Sequence record: PZ445446.1
Origin: a phage
Strand: one strand, 5' to 3'
DNA: 64,000 bases
Position 1 is the stretch's first letter. Each line of letters starts with the position of its first letter. Made by a program: the position numbers and the translations under genes. Positions 2,121 through 62,165 of this stretch are shown piece by piece. The notes under the pieces were generated by a model that worked only from the letters and a program-made list of their open reading frames with translations, was not told the DNA's origin and searched no databases.

Positions 2121-3346
2121 TGAGCGTTATTCAACAATTTGCTAACCCGATGAATCCGCGTGAAACTGTTTTACTGGCTCACGGCATGATTAAACGTGTC
2201 AGCATCAAACCTATCAAAGGTGCTGATCCTACAACAGGTATTAAAACCACTGTGTGGCAAGGTAAGAAAATTGAGTCCAGCCACACCATCTCTTTACTGA
2301 TTTCTGAACTGGATTCCTCTGATAACCTGCTTCAAGGTGGTGAAGAAGTCTGGATCAGTATGGGTGATAAACTGCTTAAACCGGGTCATCAAGACTCTGT
2401 CTCTGTTAAAATTGATGACAAGTGGGAAACCGTAACACCGGGATGGATCGTAAATATCCCTTTGAAGGCAAACGAGCATAACGGTAAGACCTATTACAAA
2501 GGCTCACTGGCTAAGATGGTCAAGCTGGGGGCAGGAGAGGCTCCAGCAGCGACTCAGCAGCAAAAACAGCAACAAGGTGCACAATCACAAGGCCAGAAGC
2601 AGAAACCTCAGCAGAATGCCAATCAGGACGTTTTACGCATCTATGGTGATGTGACTCAGATTGTTGGCAACGTGGTTACTGTTAATGACCACAAGATTGG
2701 CGAAGGTGCTATGGTTGTCACTGATGAGCAGCTTAAAGACCTGGTGGTAGGTGGTCGTGTTGCAGCCATTGTTGACAAAGACACCGGAAACATTATCAGT
2801 GGTTTCAAAGCCTATCCACCTAAGTCAGAGAACGGCACCCAAGGCTCTGGTGGCAAGCGTAAATCCTCTTACGACCCTATTGGTGTGGAGACGGGACATA
2901 GCATCAATGCGTTGCAAATCATCCTAGATCGCGGGTTTAAGGTGGACGACCCACTAAGCGTGGCTAAAACACTGCACGTAGTCACCATTGAGCTTAAGAA
3001 AGAGTATGCTCAAGCCACCAACCGAACTGAGGATGAAGTAGGTGCCAGTGTCGGTAATGCGGTGTTGAACGCTTGTCGCCGTATTGACAAGAAAACGAAA
3101 GTTGATGATTTTGCAGCGGCAATTACTGCAGAAGCAAAAGATGTCTTGACTAATCTGGCTGAGCCGTTGTACGATTGGATCAAGAACGGTGCTGGGTCAA
3201 CTGACCATCAAGAACCTCAGGCTGCCAAACAGGAAGCAGCTCCACAGCAAAATACTGTAGACGCTCCTCCTGTAAATGATGAGGAAGATGACCCGATGGA
3301 TCAGAATCCAGCACAGTACGCCTTTGATGATGACATCCCATTCTAA
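2120..3346 (+). CDS. single-stranded DNA-binding protein-like (two-domain, acidic C-terminal tip)
   Basis: 408 aa; ends in DDDIPF, identical to the conserved C-terminal tip of bacterial SSB; Q-rich low-complexity linker; second acidic stretch before the tail. Confidence 0.5.
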   Translation: MSVIQQFANPMNPRETVLLAHGMIKRVSIKPIKGADPTTGIKTTVWQGKKIESSHTISLLISELDSSDNLLQGGEEVWISMGDKLLKPGHQDSVSVKIDDKWETVTPGWIVNIPLKANEHNGKTYYKGSLAKMVKLGAGEAPAATQQQKQQQGAQSQGQKQKPQQNANQDVLRIYGDVTQIVGNVVTVNDHKIGEGAMVVTDEQLKDLVVGGRVAAIVDKDTGNIISGFKAYPPKSENGTQGSGGKRKSSYDPIGVETGHSINALQIILDRGFKVDDPLSVAKTLHVVTIELKKEYAQATNRTEDEVGASVGNAVLNACRRIDKKTKVDDFAAAITAEAKDVLTNLAEPLYDWIKNGAGSTDHQEPQAAKQEAAPQQNTVDAPPVNDEEDDPMDQNPAQYAFDDDIPF

Positions 3347-3408: not shown

Positions 3409-3825
3409 ATGACATTAGAAGATATCATTGTTAAGCCTGAGAACTATGACCAATACAACCTGTCAACTCAATCTGTAGACCTTGGATGCGCCACGGTCAG
3501 TGCGTGGCTGGTTAACGGAAAAGAGCTGGATAAATGCTTAGAAGCTCACATGTCTATTAACAAGTTTCTGGATGAAAATACTCACTGGCTTGAGGGTGCA
3601 GGCGTATATGCTTCATGGTTGGAGAGTATGGGATTCGACTACCAATCTGAAGAGGGGTGGTGGAGCTATTTAGCTATCTGCCCAGAGACGCTGCAATGCT
3701 TCATGAAATATTCTGAAGATTTAGAGTATCGCGCTGTGGTTGACAGTGCTATTGCCCGTTATAGCCGTAAACCTTTTTCCCACGACATTAAAACTGTGGA
3801 AGAATTTGTTGAAGTTTTCTGTTGA
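3409..3825 (+). CDS. hypothetical protein
   Basis: 138 aa ORF with aaggaga SD. Confidence 0.45.
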   Translation: MTLEDIIVKPENYDQYNLSTQSVDLGCATVSAWLVNGKELDKCLEAHMSINKFLDENTHWLEGAGVYASWLESMGFDYQSEEGWWSYLAICPETLQCFMKYSEDLEYRAVVDSAIARYSRKPFSHDIKTVEEFVEVFC

Positions 3826-3921
3826 CACAGGTTGAAAGGTGTGCAATTATAACTTCATAGAACGGGAGGACGTGATGAACGAAGAAAACTGGGATGTATA
3901 ACTAACAGGAGGCCACTGCCC

Positions 3922-4119
3922 ATGATTTATCGAATCCGTGTAAGAGAAGATGCACCAGGCTGTTACTTTGACTGGCGTGGGTGGTGGTTTCTCCACCCGA
4001 TGGATGGACTCACAGATAGAATGCTGGATGCTGCCCTTTATACAGATACCGACATAGAATATAATCTCTATCTGAAGGACGGTATAGATAACGGTCTATT
4101 TGAAGCAATTCCTGTGTAA
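3922..4119 (+). CDS. hypothetical small protein
   Basis: 65 aa ORF with aggagg SD. Confidence 0.4.
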   Translation: MIYRIRVREDAPGCYFDWRGWWFLHPMDGLTDRMLDAALYTDTDIEYNLYLKDGIDNGLFEAIPV

Positions 4120-4187
4120 GAGACTGTGATAGCCATGTTTTATGATCTTCCTGTAGCACCACCACCTGTTGAACCTGGAGAACTAAG

Positions 4188-4613
4188 ATGATCTATGAAA
4201 TGCCAAAACTGATTCGTGACGATGCCCAAAACGCTCACACCATTATTATGGGCAAACGCATGGATATTATTTGTCATAAAGATTTCTGGGAAGGAAGTTA
4301 CTTCACAGAGTATTTTGGTAAACTGGACAATGGTCTGCTGATCCAGTTCTACACCGATGCGGAAAACAACATTCACTGGGAGTTCGAAACTGAAGATATC
4401 CATAAACTTTTCACCTTCCTCGGTATTAAGGTTGAGGCCAAGTTTGAAGAAGGTGAGTGCGACGATTGTGGATTCTATGAGGTAACAGATTTCTACCTTC
4501 CAAGTGGTAAAAATCTCTACTACGAAAGCCACTTCGGCAACTCAAATATGCCACAGGGTTGGGATGAGTTTTTGGAAATTGCAGAAGAGGAGCTGAAATA
4601 CCGTGATTATTGA
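4188..4613 (+). CDS. hypothetical protein
   Basis: 141 aa ORF; overlaps downstream gene start. Confidence 0.45.
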   Translation: MIYEMPKLIRDDAQNAHTIIMGKRMDIICHKDFWEGSYFTEYFGKLDNGLLIQFYTDAENNIHWEFETEDIHKLFTFLGIKVEAKFEEGECDDCGFYEVTDFYLPSGKNLYYESHFGNSNMPQGWDEFLEIAEEELKYRDY

Positions 4614-5061
4614 TACTGTAAAGGGAGATCTAATCTCCATTTTCAAGAAAGGGTCAGGCCACATGATCCACGGTTGTAACTGCTTTCACACAATGGGTGC
4701 AGGTATAGCGAAAGATATTGCCCGTGAGTTCCCTCAAGCACTGGCAGCCGACAAAGAGACTGCTTATGGTAATCTAGACAAGCTGGGTATGTTTTCTTGT
4801 TGGGAGCATTTTGCCAAGACCAGGGTCGTATATGGAATCAACCTGTATACCCAGTTCTACCCAGGGCCCAATGCTGAATACTTCTCAATCATGAAAGGTT
4901 TTGAGCGAGTCAACGAGGTATTCAAAGGTATGTCATTGCCGTTCTACATTCCTAAAATCGGATGCGGTATTGGAGGTCTAAAGTGGGAACATGTAGAAGA
5001 TGTAATTAATCTTGCAACCACAGATATTGATGTGGTTGTAGTAGAGTACAAAAAGTGTTGA
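4603..5061 (+). CDS. macro-domain-like protein (putative ADP-ribose binding/processing)
   Basis: 152 aa; HGCNC...MGAGIAKDIA and IPKIGCGIGG resemble macro-domain glycine-rich ADP-ribose binding loops. Confidence 0.4.
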   Translation: MIIDTVKGDLISIFKKGSGHMIHGCNCFHTMGAGIAKDIAREFPQALAADKETAYGNLDKLGMFSCWEHFAKTRVVYGINLYTQFYPGPNAEYFSIMKGFERVNEVFKGMSLPFYIPKIGCGIGGLKWEHVEDVINLATTDIDVVVVEYKKC

Positions 5062-5115
5062 CGACCATCTTCTGAGGTGATATAGTTTCCACAACAACTA
5101 AAAGAGGAGAGCACT

Positions 5116-5286
5116 GTGGAGACTAAAATCTTAATTCTTGCTGTGGTAGATACAACCGAAGGAGCTATATTCGAATCTGCAGGAGGGTATTTCTACCTAC
5201 CATACGGAAAAAGAACTTCCGAGCCAAGTAAAGATTCAATCCTCAAAGTGTTCCCGTGTGCTTTCTGGCTGGAGATTTTGGTATAA
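5116..5286 (+). CDS. hypothetical small protein (GTG start)
   Basis: ~56 aa ORF not in track; GTG preceded by aaagaggag SD and TTGACG/TATAGT promoter-like sequence at ~5060-5092. Confidence 0.25.
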   Translation: METKILILAVVDTTEGAIFESAGGYFYLPYGKRTSEPSKDSILKVFPCAFWLEILV

Positions 5287-5312
5287 GATTGCAGATGATT
5301 TGGGAGAGAATT

Positions 5313-5507
5313 ATGAGAAACAAGAAAGAACTTTACTCTGGTGAGTGGATCAACGATCAACAGGTGGGAGAGGTAACCTGCTTCCGATGTTTTACCAGGT
5401 ACAATCTTAAAACTGCACCAAAAAGTGTTCCAAAGACTGATGGTTATTATATAAAAGAACCTCATTGCCCAAAATGTAAATGCCGATTGTACTGGAGCAA
5501 TCTGTAA
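5313..5507 (+). CDS. zinc-ribbon small protein
   Basis: 64 aa from internal ATG with ggagag SD; CFRC...CPKCKC four-cysteine motif. Confidence 0.4.
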   Translation: MRNKKELYSGEWINDQQVGEVTCFRCFTRYNLKTAPKSVPKTDGYYIKEPHCPKCKCRLYWSNL

Positions 5508-5511
5508 GAGG

Positions 5512-5539
5512 TTGACATCTGAAAACTGCAGTGTATAAT
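5512..5539 (+). promoter_or_regulatory. sigma70-like promoter
   Basis: TTGACA, 16 bp spacer, TATAAT upstream of ORF 5571. Confidence 0.5.
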
Positions 5540-5570
5540 ATACGCATAAACTAACAGAGAGCGATGTATT

Positions 5571-5762
5571 ATGGTAATTTTTAACCGGGATGGTATCATA
5601 GTTAGACAGCACCCGTTCCTTGAATACTATCAAATTGAGCAATGGTGCTACGGGGATTGCAGTCACTCCTATGGGCAAAGTTGGGGATACCGTACAGTTT
5701 TTGAATCCACAGACCTTGACAAAGTAAGACAGAAAGTTTTAGAACTTATTAACAACAAGTGA
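5571..5762 (+). CDS. hypothetical small protein
   Basis: 63 aa ORF downstream of consensus promoter. Confidence 0.45.
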   Translation: MVIFNRDGIIVRQHPFLEYYQIEQWCYGDCSHSYGQSWGYRTVFESTDLDKVRQKVLELINNK

Positions 5763-5769
5763 GTATGAT

Positions 5770-6102
5770 ATGGTAACATTAGAAAGACGTAAAGCTATTG
5801 CCGCCACACTGGCAGACATCTTTTGGGATTGTAATTTAAAATCTACCCGAAATTGTGGCGCATCTGTAGATGTATTATTCCCACGGCCTACTATTGTTGC
5901 AATGGGCAACCTTCTTGATGTGGTATATGGAGCATGGGACAAGGAAGGTGGATTCTATATCTGGCAACCTGACTACGGGACTTGGAAAGAGGTTAGTGGT
6001 TCTACGGACTTCACTCCTGCAGTGGCTAAAATGGATGGCTGGAAAATCTATGTCGGTAACGACATGGAACTGAAAGGCGAAATTGTTTACTGGTTACCTT
6101 AA
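5770..6102 (+). CDS. hypothetical protein
   Basis: 110 aa ORF, tight spacing to neighbours. Confidence 0.45.
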   Translation: MVTLERRKAIAATLADIFWDCNLKSTRNCGASVDVLFPRPTIVAMGNLLDVVYGAWDKEGGFYIWQPDYGTWKEVSGSTDFTPAVAKMDGWKIYVGNDMELKGEIVYWLP

Positions 6103-6122
6103 GAAAGTGCAGGAGATAAAGT

Positions 6123-6368
6123 ATGAACAAAGGGTGGACATTTGTAGACGGCGTTGAAAACATGCCTCTAGGAAAGTATATTGTAGCCATGGCAGATGAG
6201 AATGGCAAGGTTGATTTCGGAGCTTGCGAGATTGTTCTTGCAGGATCTGGTGACCATGTGCACAAAACTGGGATAATTAACGGTCATTTCTACTTTGATT
6301 ACAACCCTGTTGTGGCGTATATGGCTATGCCAGAGTTAGAGCTCCCAAAGGAGGGTGCAGATGTTTAA
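6123..6368 (+). CDS. hypothetical protein
   Basis: 81 aa ORF with aggagataaag SD. Confidence 0.45.
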   Translation: MNKGWTFVDGVENMPLGKYIVAMADENGKVDFGACEIVLAGSGDHVHKTGIINGHFYFDYNPVVAYMAMPELELPKEGADV

Positions 6369-6558
6369 GCTTAAATCTGCATGGAACATCGCTGTGGGGG
6401 ATGAGATCCGCATCCCAGGTGGAAAGACCATTATGAAGATATCACGTATCGAGTATGAAGGTGATCGTGTATTTCATATCTTTGCAGAAGATGGTCGAGA
6501 AATTTATATACAGGCAGGCTCTCACATCTATATCAGTAAGAAAGGGGACGACAAATGA
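6355..6558 (+). CDS. hypothetical small protein
   Basis: 67 aa ORF overlapping upstream gene end with aggag SD. Confidence 0.4.
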   Translation: MQMFKLKSAWNIAVGDEIRIPGGKTIMKISRIEYEGDRVFHIFAEDGREIYIQAGSHIYISKKGDDK

Positions 6559-25813: not shown

Positions 25814-25950
25814 TTAGAGGCCTCCTCAATTATTTGATATTAATAGCCGTAACCTAACACATTAACTACAACTGCGATTGCAAACATAATTTCAAAGCAT
25901 GCAATCTCTACATTTGGGACTAATTTCTTGATCACACCCATTGTAGCACC

Positions 25951-26268
25951 TCATTCTCTAAAGTCAATCTTTACTTTGCCTTTCCCCTTACCTTTCTTTC
26001 CACCGCATTTAGCCAGTTGACGTGCTGCAACATCTACCATACGGTCAGTTGCCTCGTAAGCATCACTGCCTTTAGCTTTGGCAATAACTTCTTTTCCAGA
26101 ATTGTCAAAAATGAACGCCATAACTTCCTGGTGATCATTTTCAACTTTTACACTCACACGTGCATAGTTGGCAGAGGGATGCAAACGCTCCAGCTTAGAC
26201 ATTTTGTGGGAAATGAAAGACACCATACCTTCAGTGATTTCTACGTTGCCAGTGATTTCAATTTGCAT
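25951..26268 (-). CDS. hpf: ribosome hibernation promoting factor / RaiA (YfiA) family homologue
   Basis: 105 aa; N-terminus MQIEITGNVEITEGM matches the HPF/YfiA start (MQLNITGNNVEITEAL in E. coli HPF); shared KLE, VKVE, G-D-Y-A-D and ARQL positions; lysine-rich tail; aagga SD. Confidence 0.65.
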   Translation of the reverse strand: MQIEITGNVEITEGMVSFISHKMSKLERLHPSANYARVSVKVENDHQEVMAFIFDNSGKEVIAKAKGSDAYEATDRMVDVAARQLAKCGGKKGKGKGKVKIDFRE

Positions 26269-53893: not shown

Positions 53894-54162
53894 TACTCGG
53901 CCTCTTCCTTAAAAATGTTAAACATCTCTTCTTTACTCATTACCAACCAGTCTCCCATAAAGTCAACTAACCAATCTCCCTGGTACAAGACCAGGTTACC
54001 AAACGGCTCGACAAGCTCACACATGCGACGAAGATCTCTGGTACGAACAGGTGACGATGTAAACACACCTGTATCAATCCACCGTTGCAGATCAGATACT
54101 GATGAAGAGCTTCCGTCAAACTGGTGTGCTTCTACAGGTTTAGCAAGATTAAATAACGGCAC
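53893..54162 (-). CDS. hypothetical protein
   Basis: 89 aa ORF; start/stop overlap with ligase. Confidence 0.4.
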   Translation of the reverse strand: MPLFNLAKPVEAHQFDGSSSSVSDLQRWIDTGVFTSSPVRTRDLRRMCELVEPFGNLVLYQGDWLVDFMGDWLVMSKEEMFNIFKEEAE

Positions 54163-54487
54163 TGCAGTCCTCCTTATCTAATAGGTCTTTTATCGGGTAA
54201 ACAAGCAGGTGTGGATCGTAATAATTTATAGTTTTATTCTGCCACACTATGAACTTAATTACAACTAAATTTACCACATCTTTATCTCCATGTAGTCCAA
54301 CACACAGATTTGTCCATATTTTGTGGTTGAATACTTTGCTGTCGATGTAGATCTTAGTGTCAAACTTATCCTCTATCCTGCCTATGAGTTTAACCAACTC
54401 TTTCATCTGATCCCCAAACACAGCATCGTTTTCAAGATCTCTAGAGTGCTTGTACATAACTATCTTCCTCACTTGCATACTTTCCAC
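54149..54487 (-). CDS. hypothetical protein
   Basis: 112 aa ORF. Confidence 0.4.
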   Translation of the reverse strand: MESMQVRKIVMYKHSRDLENDAVFGDQMKELVKLIGRIEDKFDTKIYIDSKVFNHKIWTNLCVGLHGDKDVVNLVVIKFIVWQNKTINYYDPHLLVYPIKDLLDKEDCSAVI

Positions 54488-54520
54488 AACAAGTAAAGCC
54501 GGGTAATCCCGGCTATGTTG

Positions 54521-55234
54521 TTAAATATACTCTGTTACATCCTTGAAGCTCGAAGGCTTCATGATCTTACCTTTGCTGTCAAGGAATATGATAACTTTAT
54601 TACCGTTGTAGAATTCTTCCTTAGCAACAAAACCTTCATATCGACCATCAAAGCGTCGCTCAAGATCTTTAATCTCCAACTCGATGAGTTGTTCAGCAGG
54701 CATATCTGCACTGGCACCGTGTGAATACTGTAGATGGTTGACCCGTGCAAACTTGCTGTCATTCGATTTGAGAACCTTACGCATCATCCCGCACACATCG
54801 CCGCGAAGCTGGAACAGCAAAGCTGTTGACAACTCTGCTAAGCGGTAAGCGGACGCTTTTTGCTTAGAGGTGTTTTTCGCAGCGATCAGTGTATCATAGA
54901 ACTCACCGATCTTGAACTTAAGACCCTGTGGATTATCAAACAGGTTTGACCACTTTTCGTGATTATCATTAACAAGATAAGCGGCATAACTTGTGACAAC
55001 GTGAAGATCGCAGGCCTCTTTTAGCAGGTGATCTCCGCCATCACCTTTCTCCAGCTCTTCCAAAACTTCATTGAACTCTTCCTCAATGAAGCTAAGCTGT
55101 AATTCGAATGGTGTGTATGATTTTTTCACTTTAGCTGCCACACGGTTCCAGTTTTCCACCCAGTTGGCAGACCAAAGGTAGTTTTCAGGTTGGGACAGTT
55201 TTTCCAGGTTGTCAATTAATTTGGTATTCAGCAT
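54521..55234 (-). CDS. hypothetical protein (possible MazG-like nucleotide pyrophosphohydrolase)
   Basis: 237 aa; FIEEEFNEVLEELEKGD...ACDLHVV is reminiscent of the MazG/HisE EExxE...E...D motif; assignment weak. Confidence 0.3.
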   Translation of the reverse strand: MLNTKLIDNLEKLSQPENYLWSANWVENWNRVAAKVKKSYTPFELQLSFIEEEFNEVLEELEKGDGGDHLLKEACDLHVVTSYAAYLVNDNHEKWSNLFDNPQGLKFKIGEFYDTLIAAKNTSKQKASAYRLAELSTALLFQLRGDVCGMMRKVLKSNDSKFARVNHLQYSHGASADMPAEQLIELEIKDLERRFDGRYEGFVAKEEFYNGNKVIIFLDSKGKIMKPSSFKDVTEYI

Positions 55235-55247
55235 TAAAGGTCTCCTT

Positions 55248-56009
55248 TTAAAGTTCCATAAAGTTTTCTACGGTCTCAATGAATGTTTTATCAGAGAAAG
55301 CATCAACCGCCCCGTTAAACCAAACTGGGATGCCGCGATCCTCATATTGGTAAATATCACTACGTGAAATACCATTCTCCCCTAGCTGCTGTGAGTCGTA
55401 TTTGTTAACGATCAGCAGTTTGGTTCCCTTATTGCAGGCAGGGAATAGCTCCCAGTTAAAATTGATAACTGTGTTGGAACACCCTACAAGGATAACCATA
55501 TCATTACTCGTAAGAGAAGTCAACAGGTCATACATGTCTGTATACTTCGGAGCTACTTCTCCGAAGAACACCACATTAGGTTTAACCCAGGTATACTTTC
55601 CTGCATCTACCTCAGAGTATCCAATGTCCTTAATGACGTCACTTCCTTCATCGTCCTCATAGACTATTTCTGGCAAATACCCGTGAACATGTAAAATATC
55701 TTCATGTTTTACACCAGCACGCTCCAGCAAATCATCTACATTGGTGGTAAGGTTGATCACACGACCAGACCAGCGGGAATACCACTCAGCGATCCGAAGA
55801 TGTGCAAGGTTAGGCTCAACACCGCCTAGAGCTACACGACGTGCATTGTAAAAGTCATGCACCTTGTAGTAGTTCTTGGCAAAGGTGTGGATGTTGCACA
55901 CCTCATCGATGCTGAAATTCTCCCACATTGCAGTGCTACCAGATCGGAAAGTGGGAATACCAGATTCAGCGCTCAAACCAGCACCGGAGATAATAATCAG
56001 TCGTCGCAT
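55248..56009 (-). CDS. Sir2-family NAD-dependent protein (sirtuin-like, no Zn module)
   Basis: 253 aa; GAGLSAESGIPTFR matches the sirtuin NAD-binding motif; HG catalytic dyad; no CxxC...CxxC zinc ribbon. Confidence 0.7.
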   Translation of the reverse strand: MRRLIIISGAGLSAESGIPTFRSGSTAMWENFSIDEVCNIHTFAKNYYKVHDFYNARRVALGGVEPNLAHLRIAEWYSRWSGRVINLTTNVDDLLERAGVKHEDILHVHGYLPEIVYEDDEGSDVIKDIGYSEVDAGKYTWVKPNVVFFGEVAPKYTDMYDLLTSLTSNDMVILVGCSNTVINFNWELFPACNKGTKLLIVNKYDSQQLGENGISRSDIYQYEDRGIPVWFNGAVDAFSDKTFIETVENFMEL

Positions 56010-56017
56010 AAGTGTCC

Positions 56018-56368
56018 TCAGTAGATGTTTTGTTTAATCTCTATTCCAAACTTTTTAAACGAGTCAGCTGCAAGCATGAATTTACGAGCCGCTGATGGGT
56101 TAGAAGTATGCACGAAAATCTTCACGTTGTCAACTACAGGGGGCTTACCAAATACAAATTTTTCCTCCAACATAGATAGGCAATCGTACCCTTCGAACAC
56201 CTCTCCAAGGTCGTTGTCCATGTGCCACTCAGAAACGCGTCTGTAGAGCTTTCCCCTATCGTTAATAAAATCTATAAACTCGGAGGAATTCTTTAGCCAA
56301 ATAGCGTCTGGGAGCCCATAATTTGACGGATCTCTCAAGTCATCCAGCCACACAATCAACTTCTTCAT
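56018..56368 (-). CDS. hypothetical protein
   Basis: 116 aa ORF between Sir2 and RNA ligase. Confidence 0.4.
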   Translation of the reverse strand: MKKLIVWLDDLRDPSNYGLPDAIWLKNSSEFIDFINDRGKLYRRVSEWHMDNDLGEVFEGYDCLSMLEEKFVFGKPPVVDNVKIFVHTSNPSAARKFMLAADSFKKFGIEIKQNIY

Positions 56369-57300
56369 TGCATATAGTTCTCGTTGTGGAAATAGTAATC
56401 AAGTATCTCACGGCGTTCCTGCTCCAGGAGGCAGTTCCACACATCTTCTGTGTAATTGTTACGAATGAAGTTTACCATGCCGTAAAACTCTTCGTCAACA
56501 CGTTTAAAGATATCATCATCCCAAATCCTCCAAGCTTTACCCCTCATTACGGCCTTCCGTGCCAGGTAGTATGGAGACTTGATCTTCAGCTGCAGGTCAT
56601 AAGGGTAGTAAGGCTTACGGATCATATACCCTTCGCCCCTTGTTTCTGCGGCTAATTCTTTTGCATAGCTGAACGGGATTTCACGCACAGTGTGAGGACG
56701 TTTTGCACCAAGGTATTTGGCAATCCCATCTAAAGCTGCTTCTGGTAGCATTATTCCAGAATCATTATATCTGCAACCTATCAAATATGCGCCATGGTCT
56801 TCTTGAACAATATGCGGATCTGAAGGGTGACAAATTTCAAACATGAATGTCATGTTTTCATTGCCCATAACCTTCTTGATAAGATCTAAATTACCACATT
56901 GCTCTTGGATGGTTTCCTTTGCAAGGTTACAATATGGAGAATCAAGAGACCCGGTTGTTGAGAACAATAGGTCACCTTTATGAGATGATACCACACCAAG
57001 GAATCCGTTCTTTTTCTCTACCGCAGTCACAAGCTTATTGTCAGGCAGGTTGGTGGAGTTTTCTCCCAAGTTAAACACTTTTGTGAAGGGCCATGCCACA
57101 ACATTTCCTTCATTACCTACAACAATGCCTCGGCACTCCAGTAAACGAGGGGACAAATGCCATAAATTGTTGTAAAATACTTTTCTAGCATATTTATAGA
57201 TCTTTAACCCGAGATCTGGGTAATACCTACTGGTTACAAGACCTTTGTCAACTAGGTCGTCTGCATTAAAATACTTCATCATACGTTCCTCATTTGTCAT
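56365..57300 (-). CDS. RNA ligase 1 (T4 RnlA-like)
   Basis: 311 aa; LECRGIVVGNEG, KVFNLGEN, AVEKKNGFL, FSTTGS align with T4 Rnl1 LECRGIMFEMDG, KFFNLNEN, LTKEDGSL, FKSKGS. Confidence 0.7.
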   Translation of the reverse strand: MTNEERMMKYFNADDLVDKGLVTSRYYPDLGLKIYKYARKVFYNNLWHLSPRLLECRGIVVGNEGNVVAWPFTKVFNLGENSTNLPDNKLVTAVEKKNGFLGVVSSHKGDLLFSTTGSLDSPYCNLAKETIQEQCGNLDLIKKVMGNENMTFMFEICHPSDPHIVQEDHGAYLIGCRYNDSGIMLPEAALDGIAKYLGAKRPHTVREIPFSYAKELAAETRGEGYMIRKPYYPYDLQLKIKSPYYLARKAVMRGKAWRIWDDDIFKRVDEEFYGMVNFIRNNYTEDVWNCLLEQERREILDYYFHNENYMQ

Positions 57301-57343
57301 TTTGTCAGTCTATCCTGCCACACAAATAACCTAGTGTCAACAC

Positions 57344-57808
57344 TTGAAATTAACAAAACAGTTAGGTATACTATCGTTGAAATTAAAACGGAGGGTCACT
57401 ATGTCTAAAATGCTATATATCGTGCGTGGTCTACCAGGGTCTGGCAAATCAACACTGGCAAATGCGCTATCTTTAGAGGGTCTGTATCCACATTTTGAGA
57501 ACGACATGTTCTGGTACGACGATGATGGAAATTACAACTGGGATGCAAGTAAAGTCACACTTGCAGCAAAATGGTGCAAAGATAACGTAGAAGATATGAT
57601 GCGTATGGGATACGACCGTATCGTGGTAAGTAATACGTTTACAAAAGAAAAATATGTGCAAAAATATATTGACATGGCAATCAGTTATGGGTATAGTTAT
57701 ACCGTAATCGTGGTTGAAAACCGCCACGGTAATAAAAGCATTCATGCTTCAGACGAGGTTGTGGATCGTATGGAACGCCAACTTAAAAACTGCATTAAAC
57801 TTAAATGA
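57344..57808 (+). CDS. P-loop polynucleotide kinase-like protein
   Basis: 154 aa; Walker A GLPGSGKST in a context like T4 Pnk N-terminus (GCPGSGKST); TTGAAA/TATACT promoter-like and ggaggg SD. Confidence 0.55.
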   Translation: MKLTKQLGILSLKLKRRVTMSKMLYIVRGLPGSGKSTLANALSLEGLYPHFENDMFWYDDDGNYNWDASKVTLAAKWCKDNVEDMMRMGYDRIVVSNTFTKEKYVQKYIDMAISYGYSYTVIVVENRHGNKSIHASDEVVDRMERQLKNCIKLK

Positions 57809-57815
57809 GGAATGT

Positions 57816-58370
57816 ATGAAATACTTTGTAACAAGCGACACACACTTTCTCCACCAGCGGGTCATGGAGTTCGATTCATGTCAAAAACACAGATCTCAGT
57901 ATGATCACAATCTTGACAGTATGAATGCGGGAATCATCGCCGAGTGGAACTCTGTTGTGTCACCTGCAGACACTGTGTTCCACTTGGGAGATATTGCGTG
58001 CACTAATGATAAGAATATCAACAACTTACTTCCAGATATTCTAAATATGTTGAACGGACATATTATTCTTGTTCGTGGCAACCATGACACAAGGACGACT
58101 GTCAGAATTATGAAAGAGTTCGGTCATGAGGTTGTAGATTATTACGAGCTTCGCCACAACAAGAATTTGATCTGTATGAGCCATTACCAATTTGCAAAGT
58201 GGAACAGAAAGCCTCACGGATCAGTCCAACTGTTCGGTCATGCTCACGGAACCACACAACAGTTGTTTGGCAGGCAGCTTGATGTCGGTTGGGATGTGTG
58301 GGGGAGACTCTTACCATTAGAAGAGGCATACCGTATTGCAATGAGTTTTGCTATTGACAGCGGGGAGTAA
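57816..58370 (+). CDS. metallophosphoesterase (calcineurin-like)
   Basis: Start at ATG 57816 (gagga SD) rather than track 57714; motifs SDTHF, GD, VRGNHD. Confidence 0.65.
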   Translation: MKYFVTSDTHFLHQRVMEFDSCQKHRSQYDHNLDSMNAGIIAEWNSVVSPADTVFHLGDIACTNDKNINNLLPDILNMLNGHIILVRGNHDTRTTVRIMKEFGHEVVDYYELRHNKNLICMSHYQFAKWNRKPHGSVQLFGHAHGTTQQLFGRQLDVGWDVWGRLLPLEEAYRIAMSFAIDSGE

Positions 58371-61306: not shown

Positions 61307-61381
61307 GCCCTGTTAGCTTAGTGGATAAAGCAGCGGCCTTCTAAGCCGTTGACACTGGTTCGAGTCCAGTACGGGGTGCCA
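61307..61381 (+). tRNA. tRNA-Arg (anticodon UCU)
   Basis: Hand-folded cloverleaf: acceptor gccctgt/acggggt (two G-U), D-arm gctt/aagc, anticodon loop cttctaa, T-loop ttcgagt, encoded CCA. Confidence 0.7.
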
Positions 61382-61385
61382 AATT

Positions 61386-61472
61386 GGGGAGTTATCCCGT
61401 AGAGGTAGCGGTGTAGACTGTAAATCTATTGTCATTGCGACTCGGGTGGTTCGACTCCACCACTCCCCACCA
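61386..61472 (+). tRNA. tRNA-Tyr (anticodon GUA), type II
   Basis: Acceptor ggggagt/actcccc, anticodon loop ctgtaaa, long variable arm, T-arm ggtgg-ttcgact-ccacc, CCA encoded; close to E. coli tRNA-Tyr. Confidence 0.75.
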
Positions 61473-61586
61473 AATTTATATTTTTAGATGCATAAATAAT
61501 ACAGATAATGGCATTGATATTTATCGTCGTTTATACTAGTCACTAACTGCTCGAAAATCAGTGTCATTATCAGTATAATTTATAAA

Positions 61587-61677
61587 GGAGGGTAGGGAGC
61601 AATGGTGCTCAAGCGGTCTTGAAAACCGTCCCGTTGAGGATGACTCGATGATGGTTCGATTCCATTACTCTCCGCCA
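61587..61677 (+). tRNA. tRNA-Ser (anticodon UGA), type II
   Basis: Acceptor ggagggt/actctcc, D-stem gagc/gctc, anticodon stem gcggt/accgt with loop cttgaaa, long variable arm, T-loop ttcgatt, CCA encoded. Confidence 0.7.
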
Positions 61678-61766
61678 CATTGTTGACCTTGTAATTAAGC
61701 GAAAGCCGGAAGCAGAACCGGATTATCAAATGTTACAGTCGTCATCGCCGACTAGCAACATGGTCA

Positions 61767-61863
61767 ACATACTGAGCTAGGTAAGCCCTTTGGCAAGGGC
61801 GAGGATTTTTAATCCTGAAAATAGACGAGGTAGTCGTTGAATACATAGGTGGTTCGATTCCAT
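61767..61863 (+). tRNA. atypical tRNA-like gene (UUU-like anticodon loop, ~30-nt extra region, no encoded CCA)
   Basis: Perfect 7-bp acceptor gctaggt/acctagc, normal D-arm (gccc-tttggcaa-gggc) and T-arm (ggtgg-ttcgatt-ccatc), anticodon-like loop tttttaa; ~30 nt between anticodon and T arms; 3' end is CCT. Confidence 0.4.
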
Positions 61864-61870
61864 CACCTAG

Positions 61871-61946
61871 CACCTTTTTGCTGATGTAGCACAATCGGTA
61901 GTGCAATTGATTTGTAATCAATAGGTTGTAGGTTCAAGTCCTGCCA
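61871..61946 (+). tRNA. tRNA-Thr (anticodon UGU)
   Basis: Acceptor gctgatg/catcagc, D-stem gcac/gtgc, anticodon stem attga/tcaat with loop tttgtaa, T-loop ttcaagt, CCA encoded. Confidence 0.75.
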
Positions 61947-61947
61947 T

Positions 61948-62022
61948 CAGCACCAAGGCCCTGTAGCTGGAAGGTTCAAGCAAGCGACTCATAATCGCCA
62001 GACGGTGGTTCAATTCCACCCA
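61948..62022 (+). tRNA. tRNA-Met (anticodon CAU; initiator/elongator/Ile-lysidine not resolved)
   Basis: Acceptor ggccctg/cagggcc, anticodon loop ctcataa, T-arm ggtgg-ttcaatt-ccacc, CCA encoded. Confidence 0.65.
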
Positions 62023-62033
62023 GGGCCACCAAA

Positions 62034-62110
62034 TAGTAAATACTCCGCGTAGCTCAGCTTGGTAGAGCGCCTGATTTGGGATCAGGAGGTCGAGTGTTCG
62101 AATCACTCCG
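62034..62110 (+). tRNA. tRNA-Pro (anticodon UGG)
   Basis: Acceptor ctccgcg/cgtggag, D-arm gctc-agcttggta-gagc, anticodon stem cctga/tcagg with loop tttggga, T-loop ttcgaat, CCA encoded. Confidence 0.75.
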
Positions 62111-62165
62111 TGGAGACCACTTTCAGTTATACTTTAAACATATATAAACAAAAGGAACCTTTAAA

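Follow-up and report, generated by a model that had tools for sequence, protein, structure and literature searches.

We analysed a 64,000-nucleotide stretch of phage DNA (record PZ445446.1, hereafter the window) with a focus on two genes, one encoding a sirtuin (Sir2) homologue and one encoding a macro-domain protein (Table 1). Megablast searches with positions 54000-58000 and 3500-6500 identified the window as DNA of an rV5-like (Vequintavirus) coliphage, with about 120 matching phage records at 90-99.9% identity, all of them rV5-like. The closest record in both regions was Escherichia phage JeffSchatz (BASEL Bas55), at 99.3-99.9% identity. In more than 100 relatives, annotation exists for both genes. 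GenBank labels the sirtuin gene "sirtuin domain NAD-dependent deacetylase", "Sir2-like" or "cobB", and the macro gene "Poa1p-like family protein", "Macro domain protein" or "phosphatase". The genes, their folds, their neighbourhood and their predicted function are thus already known from GenBank annotation and from a 2022 paper (PMC9503650). We regard each of the two as an accessory gene in its own right of an rV5-like phage, annotated before, and the finding as an ordinary one. For the sirtuin, the present analysis adds the derived loss of the zinc ribbon together with a change from TQN to TTN, an invariant YxxR motif and a four-gene unit bounded by a hairpin. For the macro protein, it adds the assignment to the Tk.4/Adpp family with a glutamine (Q84) replacing the catalytic lysine, and the finding that the gene is not phyletically coupled to the sirtuin gene.

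The sirtuin scored 95 bits against the Pfam SIR2 model (PF02146, cut-off 24) and matched PHROG 2162 with an E-value of 1.8e-108. Its best sequence matches in the PDB were E. coli CobB and SIRT5 (E about 4e-21). The Rossmann NAD-binding loop of the GAGxSxxSGIPxFR type, which the original prediction had noted, is indeed present (GAGLSAESGIPTFR, residues 9-22). Residue conservation was read from an alignment of 30 homologues with 48-98% identity. S16, G17, F21 and R22 of the loop were invariant, as were F53, Y54, R57 and R58, T89, N90 and D92, H109 and G110, and F148, F149 and E151. The catalytic histidine, asparagine and aspartate residues (H109, N90 and D92) are therefore all in place, and the glutamine of the TQN motif is replaced by the invariant T89. 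The string FYNARR is the same in CobB and is the counterpart of FYHYRR in SIRT5; it contains the class-III YxxR motif (Y54, R57). The FGE loop is also kept, within the segment KPNVVFFGE.

The whole protein contains three cysteines, and none of them lies between H109 and K143, i.e. between the HG and KPNVVFFGE motifs. Because of this, the four-cysteine zinc ribbon of the small domain must be absent, as had been predicted. An AlphaFold2 model (pLDDT 90, pTM 0.87) shows a beta-hairpin at residues 110-128, and the Foldseek neighbours of this model were CobB, Af-Sir2 and SIRT5 (TM about 0.75, E about 1e-17). With CobB and SIRT5 the phage protein shares 25-27% identity, the Rossmann core with its NAD-binding loop, the catalytic residues and the FGE loop. 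It differs from them in the missing zinc ribbon, in the threonine that replaces the glutamine of TQN, and in the location of its gene in an RNA-repair operon. Homologues from two jumbo-phage contigs keep both the CxxC..CxxC cysteines and TQN, whereas the sirtuins of rV5-like, T5-like and related medium-sized phages have lost the cysteines and have TTN instead. The retention in the jumbo-phage homologues indicates that loss of the zinc ribbon is a derived trait of the medium-sized-phage subclade.

The protein fell below all curated CobB equivalog cut-offs (102 bits against 320 for NCBIfam NF040867, and 122 bits against 243 for NF001753). It is not a member of the defence-associated Sir2 NADases (ThsA, DSR, Sir2-HerA, KomC, Avs5), as it lacks both similarity to their models and the fusion to, or pairing with, a sensor, and a PADLOC scan returned no match for it. 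A macro-domain gene neither adjoins the sirtuin gene nor is fused to it, in contrast to SirTM. Finally, the protein has a sirtuin fold and not the ADP-ribosyltransferase (ART) fold of Tpt1/KptA.

The sirtuin gene is the third of four genes in a tightly packed minus-strand unit, in the order Rnl1-family RNA ligase, cREC, Sir2, MazG-like. The ligase stop and the cREC start overlap by 4 nt, and the gaps on either side of the Sir2 gene are 8 nt (to cREC) and 13 nt (to the MazG-like gene). The unit is followed by a hairpin, which sits just past the MazG-like stop and before the next minus-strand gene and has a terminator-like score on both strands. At its other end, a divergent region of 100 bp separates the unit from a plus-strand pair of genes for a kinase-like protein and a phosphoesterase. 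The kinase-like protein matched PHROG 2071 (E 2.9e-55) and PHROG 505, "polynucleotide kinase" (E 5.5e-10), and it is annotated as a polynucleotide kinase in relatives. The translated ligase contains an EKKNG motif, and its match to TIGR02308 was weak. Sequence searches of the PDB returned no match for the RNA ligase, the MazG-like protein or cREC, and the ligase is therefore not assignable to either the Trl1 type, which requires a 2'-phosphate, or the T4 Rnl1 type. Seven tRNA genes follow at 61307-62119, 3 kb downstream of the cassette.

Table 1. Positions and properties of the two genes under study and of the features that surround the sirtuin gene in the window.
Feature	Position	Strand	Properties
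Zinc-less class-III-like sirtuin (Sir2/CobB family)	55248..56009	-	253 aa
Stand-alone macro domain, T4 Tk.4/Poa1p/Adpp family	4603..5061	+	152 aa, GTG start; unlinked to cassette
T4 Rnl1-family RNA ligase	56365..57300	-	311 aa; Pfam RNA_lig_T4_1 E 1.1e-14; PHROG 562 E 2.7e-66
cREC (cyclic-phosphate processing receiver-like)	56018..56368	-	116 aa; PF20274 cREC_REC E 1.3e-14, 55 bits (cut-off 27); PHROG 1479 E 7.5e-35
MazG-like nucleotide pyrophosphohydrolase, last gene of unit	54521..55234	-	237 aa; PHROG 671 E 1.1e-21; Pfam PRA-PH sub-threshold only
GC-rich hairpin AGCCGGG-TAAT-CCCGGCT, terminator-like	54497..54514	.	perfect 7-bp stem; consensus scan only
P-loop polynucleotide-kinase-like protein, divergent	57401..57808	+	135 aa; Pfam AAA_33 E 6e-10; GLPGSGKST motif
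Calcineurin-like metallophosphoesterase	57816..58370	+	184 aa; Pfam Metallophos and Metallophos_2 above cut-off; all metallophosphoesterase motifs (DTHFLH, GDIA, GNHD, GHAH)

All five partners of the phage V5-type sirtuin cassette are found within 54521-58370. Phage V5 is the prototype of this sirtuin neighbourhood in the work of Iyer, Burroughs, Anantharaman and Aravind (2022, Viruses 14:1977; PMC9503650, section 3.7.3), in which the sirtuin was predicted to remove 2'-phosphates from RNA with the help of NAD+, like KptA/Tpt1. The gene set reported there for phage V5 and Proteus phage Mydo (T4-like RNA ligase, cREC, nucleotide kinase, MazG-superfamily pyrophosphatase, calcineurin-like phosphoesterase and sirtuin) is identical to that of the window, without material difference, and the window phage is a close relative of V5. 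As was argued in that paper, a sirtuin embedded in a ligase/cREC/kinase/phosphoesterase cassette points to RNA repair rather than to defence signalling. The earlier interpretation, which appears partly correct in other respects, had missed this context.

The association was tested independently on 60 IMG/VR loci that code for sirtuins related to this one. In 13 of them, from PVP-SE1/Mydo-like genomes of 145-153 kb, the Sir2 gene was accompanied by genes for ligase, cREC, kinase, phosphoesterase, MazG-like protein and a DNA ligase, in rearranged order. In 29 T5-like loci it was adjoined by a gene for HAD_SAK_2 (PF18143), a "Swiss-army-knife" RNA-repair phosphatase, which lay upstream in some loci and downstream in others. 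In a 608-kb jumbo contig (L061, 3582-6708), an RNA_lig_T4_1 gene was located 1.2 kb upstream of Sir2, with an arginase-family gene also nearby, and in a 279-kb contig (L062, 6001-10642) Sir2 was followed by a nucleoside 2-deoxyribosyltransferase-like gene, and RlaP and Thg1 lay at a distance of 2-4 kb. The sirtuins of these two contigs retain the zinc ribbon. A weakly matching Metallophos gene was found 1.4 kb downstream of Sir2 in an 89.9-kb contig. Linkage of the sirtuin to RNA-end processing was thus met repeatedly, in four or more distinct gene contexts, without being universal.

As a separate observation on the T5-like loci, the sirtuin and HAD_SAK_2 genes overlap by about 20 nt (for example L073, 11528-12836, Salmonella phage Th1). 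Their order varies by sublineage and their adjacency is kept, and RefSeq labels both genes "Sir2".

The macro gene sits in a long run of small open reading frames on the same strand. Its product matched the Pfam Macro model only marginally (26 bits, cut-off 22) and PHROG 335 strongly (E 6e-60). Foldseek comparison of its AlphaFold2 model (pLDDT 92.6) returned the macrodomains of TARG1, Poa1p and DarG (E 2e-9 to 1e-7, TM 0.70-0.78; E 2.7e-9 for Poa1p), and a profile of the family matched BT1257, SCO6735, M. tuberculosis DarG, TARG1 and Poa1p (E 4e-15 to 1e-12). The macro fold that had been suggested for this protein is therefore confirmed. Residues invariant in the family are H23, G24, N26, C27, M31, G32, G34 and A36, further N80, Y82, T83 and Q84, and P117, G120, G122 and G125. 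The invariant Q84 aligns opposite K84 of TARG1 and K80 of DarG. In the profile alignment, two glycines stand opposite the aspartate of GLDRL, so that D125 of TARG1 is also replaced, by glycine. N22 of DarG is replaced by H23, which aligns with H23 of Poa1p, the residue mutated in PDB entry 6LFS. The protein consequently has neither the Lys84/Asp125 dyad of TARG1/OARD1 nor the Asn22 and Lys80 of DarG2/AdfM (T. aquaticus numbering).

The fold, the HxCNC..GxG motif, the H23 equivalent and the similarity to a validated member place the protein in the Poa1p/Adpp subfamily. The validated member is Adpp (KNV71_gp137 of Vibrio phage Gary), with which it shares 33% identity (E 4e-18), every family-invariant residue and the motifs HxCNCF..MGxGIA, NxYxQ and GxGxxGG. 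Identity to T4 Tk.4 is about 40% over the full length, and both proteins are encoded by stand-alone genes of large lytic coliphages with an RNA ligase and a kinase; T4, however, has no sirtuin, whereas the window phage has one. The literature consulted, which included no completed search on Tk.4, gave no function for that protein. Judging from these alignments, the protein is probably an ADP-ribose-1''-phosphate phosphatase of the Tk.4/Poa1p/Adpp type. A tblastn search found the family in 2832 phage records, covering all T-even phages (tk.4, about 40% identity), FelixO1-like phages, Pakpunavirus, Kuttervirus, phi92-like phages and others.

Two further phages, Vibrio phage Gary (L076, 557-6659) and Acinetobacter phage Rocket (L069, 1-3971), which are unrelated, carry an Adps-Adpp-Namat operon for NAD+ reconstitution, with Adpp as its macro phosphatase, directly beside RNA-repair genes. 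Beside the Gary operon, these are the same trio that is found in the window, a Rnl1-like ligase, a P-loop ATPase and a phosphoesterase. Modules for RNA repair and for NAD/ADP-ribose salvage appear to co-localise in these two phages.

We tentatively favour the explanation that the sirtuin has a role in RNA repair, most specifically in the NAD+-dependent removal of 2'-phosphates, with the macro protein acting as a phosphatase for ADP-ribose-1''-phosphate (ADPR-1''P). What is established comprises the folds and residues, the order of the genes and the recurrent linkage of the sirtuin family to RNA-repair genes; from these we infer every enzymatic step and any link between sirtuin and macro protein. 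The four-gene unit and the divergent kinase/phosphoesterase pair would together act as a heal-and-seal cassette. Its substrates would be RNAs, for the most part tRNAs, that host metal-independent nucleases have cut to leave 2',3'-cyclic-phosphate and 5'-OH ends. The sirtuin would most likely spend NAD+ on an RNA end or junction. In the KptA/Tpt1-like reaction proposed by Iyer et al. (2022), the RNA 2'-phosphate would attack C1'' of NAD+ with departure of nicotinamide, and the 2''-OH, activated by a histidine (H109), would then attack in a second step. Both of these Tpt1 steps would parallel ordinary sirtuin chemistry, and the invariant anion pocket of the class-III motif (Y54-x-x-R57) could hold the phosphate. 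cREC might open the cyclic phosphate of the product, and the macro protein could then clear ADPR-1''P. Alternatively, the macro protein may clear ADPR-1''P made by host NADases of the RES type. The analogy to Tpt1/KptA concerns the proposed reaction (NAD+-dependent 2'-phosphate removal that would yield ADP-ribose cyclic phosphate, ADPr>p) and the logic of a pathway with ligase, kinase and cyclic phosphodiesterase; it does not extend to structure, as the ART fold of Tpt1/KptA and the sirtuin Rossmann fold are unrelated.

A more far-reaching version of this explanation strikes us as possible but doubtful. The zinc-less sirtuin would be a true RNA 2'-phosphotransferase, i.e. a non-ART analogue of Tpt1/KptA, in which the YxxR pocket takes the 2'-phosphate in place of a succinyl carboxylate. 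This would be new chemistry for the sirtuin superfamily. With the kinase, the Rnl1-like ligase, the unlinked macro protein as ADPR-1''P phosphatase and cREC as a cyclic phosphodiesterase that acts on RNA cyclic phosphate (RNA>p) as well as on ADPr>p, the sirtuin would provide rV5-like phages with a complete yeast-type pathway of healing, sealing and dephosphorylation.

Several points weigh against a role of the sirtuin in 2'-phosphate removal. The protein retains every residue of a lysine deacylase, including the FGE loop and a YxxR motif of the desuccinylase type, and its closest structures are deacylases. Kinase, calcineurin-like phosphoesterase and Rnl1 could mend RNA ends without ever leaving a 2'-phosphate. 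T4 repairs RNA ends in this way with Pnkp and Rnl1, and E. coli has a KptA of its own. The 13 syntenic loci come from related phages and were counted as one lineage, so that their conservation is partly inheritance. A phi92-like phage and a 121-kb phage have Sir2 without an RNA-repair neighbour at the locus. In the literature, sirtuins are not known to accept a phosphate as nucleophile, and on experiments with phage sirtuins only the 2022 comparative-genomics paper turned up (PMC9503650).

The part assigned to the macro protein is further burdened by the separation of the two genes, which are encoded on opposite strands at a distance of 50 kb from each other. With 2832 phage records against 1020, the macro family outnumbers the Sir2 family almost threefold, and the T5-like phage Th1 has Sir2 and no macro-family member at a hidden Markov model (HMM) E-value of 1 or below. 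Among Escherichia phages the numbers are 998 for macro and 375 for Sir2, and at least 623 records must therefore have the former without the latter. No locus examined has Sir2 adjoining a macro gene, and only one (L048) has both within 6 kb, with a DNA polymerase gene between them. On grounds of distance and phyletic pattern we reject a functional Sir2-macro pair, and the earlier idea that the two genes act together is not supported. The two proteins may still meet biochemically, because a Tpt1-like reaction would be expected to end in ADPR-1''P.

The strongest competing explanation, which we nevertheless consider rather unlikely, is that the sirtuin works as a NAD+-dependent protein lysine deacylase of the ordinary CobB/SIRT5-like kind, which might be a desuccinylase or demalonylase. 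During infection, it would reset the acylation of host or phage proteins, the macro protein would hydrolyse the O-acyl-ADP-ribose product, and the position in the operon would be incidental. This fits the best sequence and structure matches (CobB, SIRT5, Af-Sir2 and PfSir2A), the invariance of the catalytic histidine, asparagine and aspartate, of the FGE loop and of the class-III YxxR motif, and the annotation in more than 100 GenBank records. Names of PDB entries also indicate that macro domains of the TARG1/OARD1 class can deacylate O-acetyl-ADP-ribose. However, the subclade has lost the zinc ribbon, which gives the peptide-binding small domain its shape, and has exchanged TQN for TTN, and all CobB equivalog models were missed by a wide margin. 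An incidental operon position also sits poorly with a linkage to RNA-end processing that recurs in at least four gene contexts, and a macro protein devoted to the sirtuin product sits poorly with the uncoupled occurrence of the two genes.

We judge it less probable again, and quite unlikely, that sirtuin and macro protein serve as a counter-defence against immunity based on NAD+ or ADP-ribose, as the original prediction had proposed. The macro protein would destroy ADPR-1''P (against the RES-type NADase aRES) or cyclic ADP-ribose isomers, or would strip ADP-ribose of the DarT type from DNA, and the sirtuin would interfere with systems that deplete NAD or attach ADP-ribose. The main support comes from the 33%-identical homologue Adpp, a proven anti-aRES component, which converts ADPR-1''-phosphate to ADP-ribose and thereby lets NARP1 overcome aRES (Osterman et al. 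2026, bioRxiv 10.64898/2026.01.28.702374). The Gary and Rocket macro proteins are encoded within the NARP1 operon, beside RNA-repair genes, and in Gary the Adpp gene lies between Adps and Namat. The gene of the window, by contrast, stands alone in its block of small genes and is not flanked by Adps and Namat. Adpp acts only by feeding NARP1, and neither Adps nor Namat was found in the window or in the complete JeffSchatz genome, by tblastn (all E-values of 1 or higher) or in the annotation. NARP3 is irrelevant to this phage.

A second precedent is the stand-alone macro protein AdfM of phage PhiKZ, which neutralises DarTG2 (PMC13309987). The macro protein of the window belongs to the same macro class as AdfM and the DarG2 macrodomain (Foldseek E about 2e-8 to 1e-7), and it matches DarG models at the level of the domain (PADLOC, E 8e-13; NCBIfam, E 4e-12). 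The NCBIfam score of 46 bits is nonetheless far below the cut-off of 250, and the 152-aa protein has no DarT-binding C-domain. With both the catalytic asparagine and the catalytic lysine replaced by the invariant H23 and Q84, an anti-DarT role is disfavoured, and we reject a DNA de-ADP-ribosylase of the DarG/AdfM type; the TARG1 residues are likewise replaced. For the sirtuin, there is neither a precedent nor a contextual hint of an anti-defence function. What stands of the anti-defence proposal is thus the part that concerns the macro protein, through the precedent of Adpp against aRES, and even this part calls for a NARP1 that the phage does not have.

Although Sir2 domains are common as NADase effectors, and SirTM-type sirtuins ADP-ribosylate proteins and pair with macro domains (PMC9503650), it is highly improbable that the phage uses its sirtuin as a NADase or ADP-ribosylating toxin, be it to shut off the host or to exclude superinfecting phages, as PADLOC returned no match, a sensor domain and a partner gene are missing, and the macro gene is not adjacent.

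If the published prediction of 2'-phosphate removal is true, sirtuins would gain a nucleic-acid phosphate as substrate. Phages would then spend NAD+ on tRNA repair, and NAD-depleting defences would cripple that repair as well. Stand-alone macro proteins of the Tk.4 type occur in about 5.6% of phage records, T4 included. The phage belongs to the Bas55-like lineage of the BASEL collection; it is genetically tractable and offers a convenient test bed.

Some minor observations concern the surroundings of these genes. The tRNA cluster contains a 99-nt tRNA-like gene (61776-61874, plus strand), 3.4 kb from the RNA-repair cassette. ARAGORN assigned it an undetermined type with a four-base anticodon, and it scored 35.5 bits with the Rfam tRNA model (gathering score 29). 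It reads as a tRNA-Lys(UUU) with an extra arm of about 27 nt, which is unusual for tRNA-Lys, and folds as a cloverleaf with an extra hairpin (z = -3.7). Anticodon nucleases (PrrC, PARIS) have tRNA-Lys(UUU) as their classic target. In the phi92-like phage ECO340P2 (L065), an Acb2_Tad1_hairpin gene (2940-3215), similar to anti-CBASS/anti-Thoeris sponges, stands among small genes 4 kb upstream from the sirtuin gene, and RNA-repair genes are absent from the vicinity. A "ribosome hibernation factor" is annotated in JeffSchatz (bas55_0151), and by offset its equivalent in the window should lie at about 25930-26250 on the minus strand, among small genes of that strand. Three putative N6-adenine methyltransferase genes are likewise present in the window, as are class I and class III ribonucleotide reductases.

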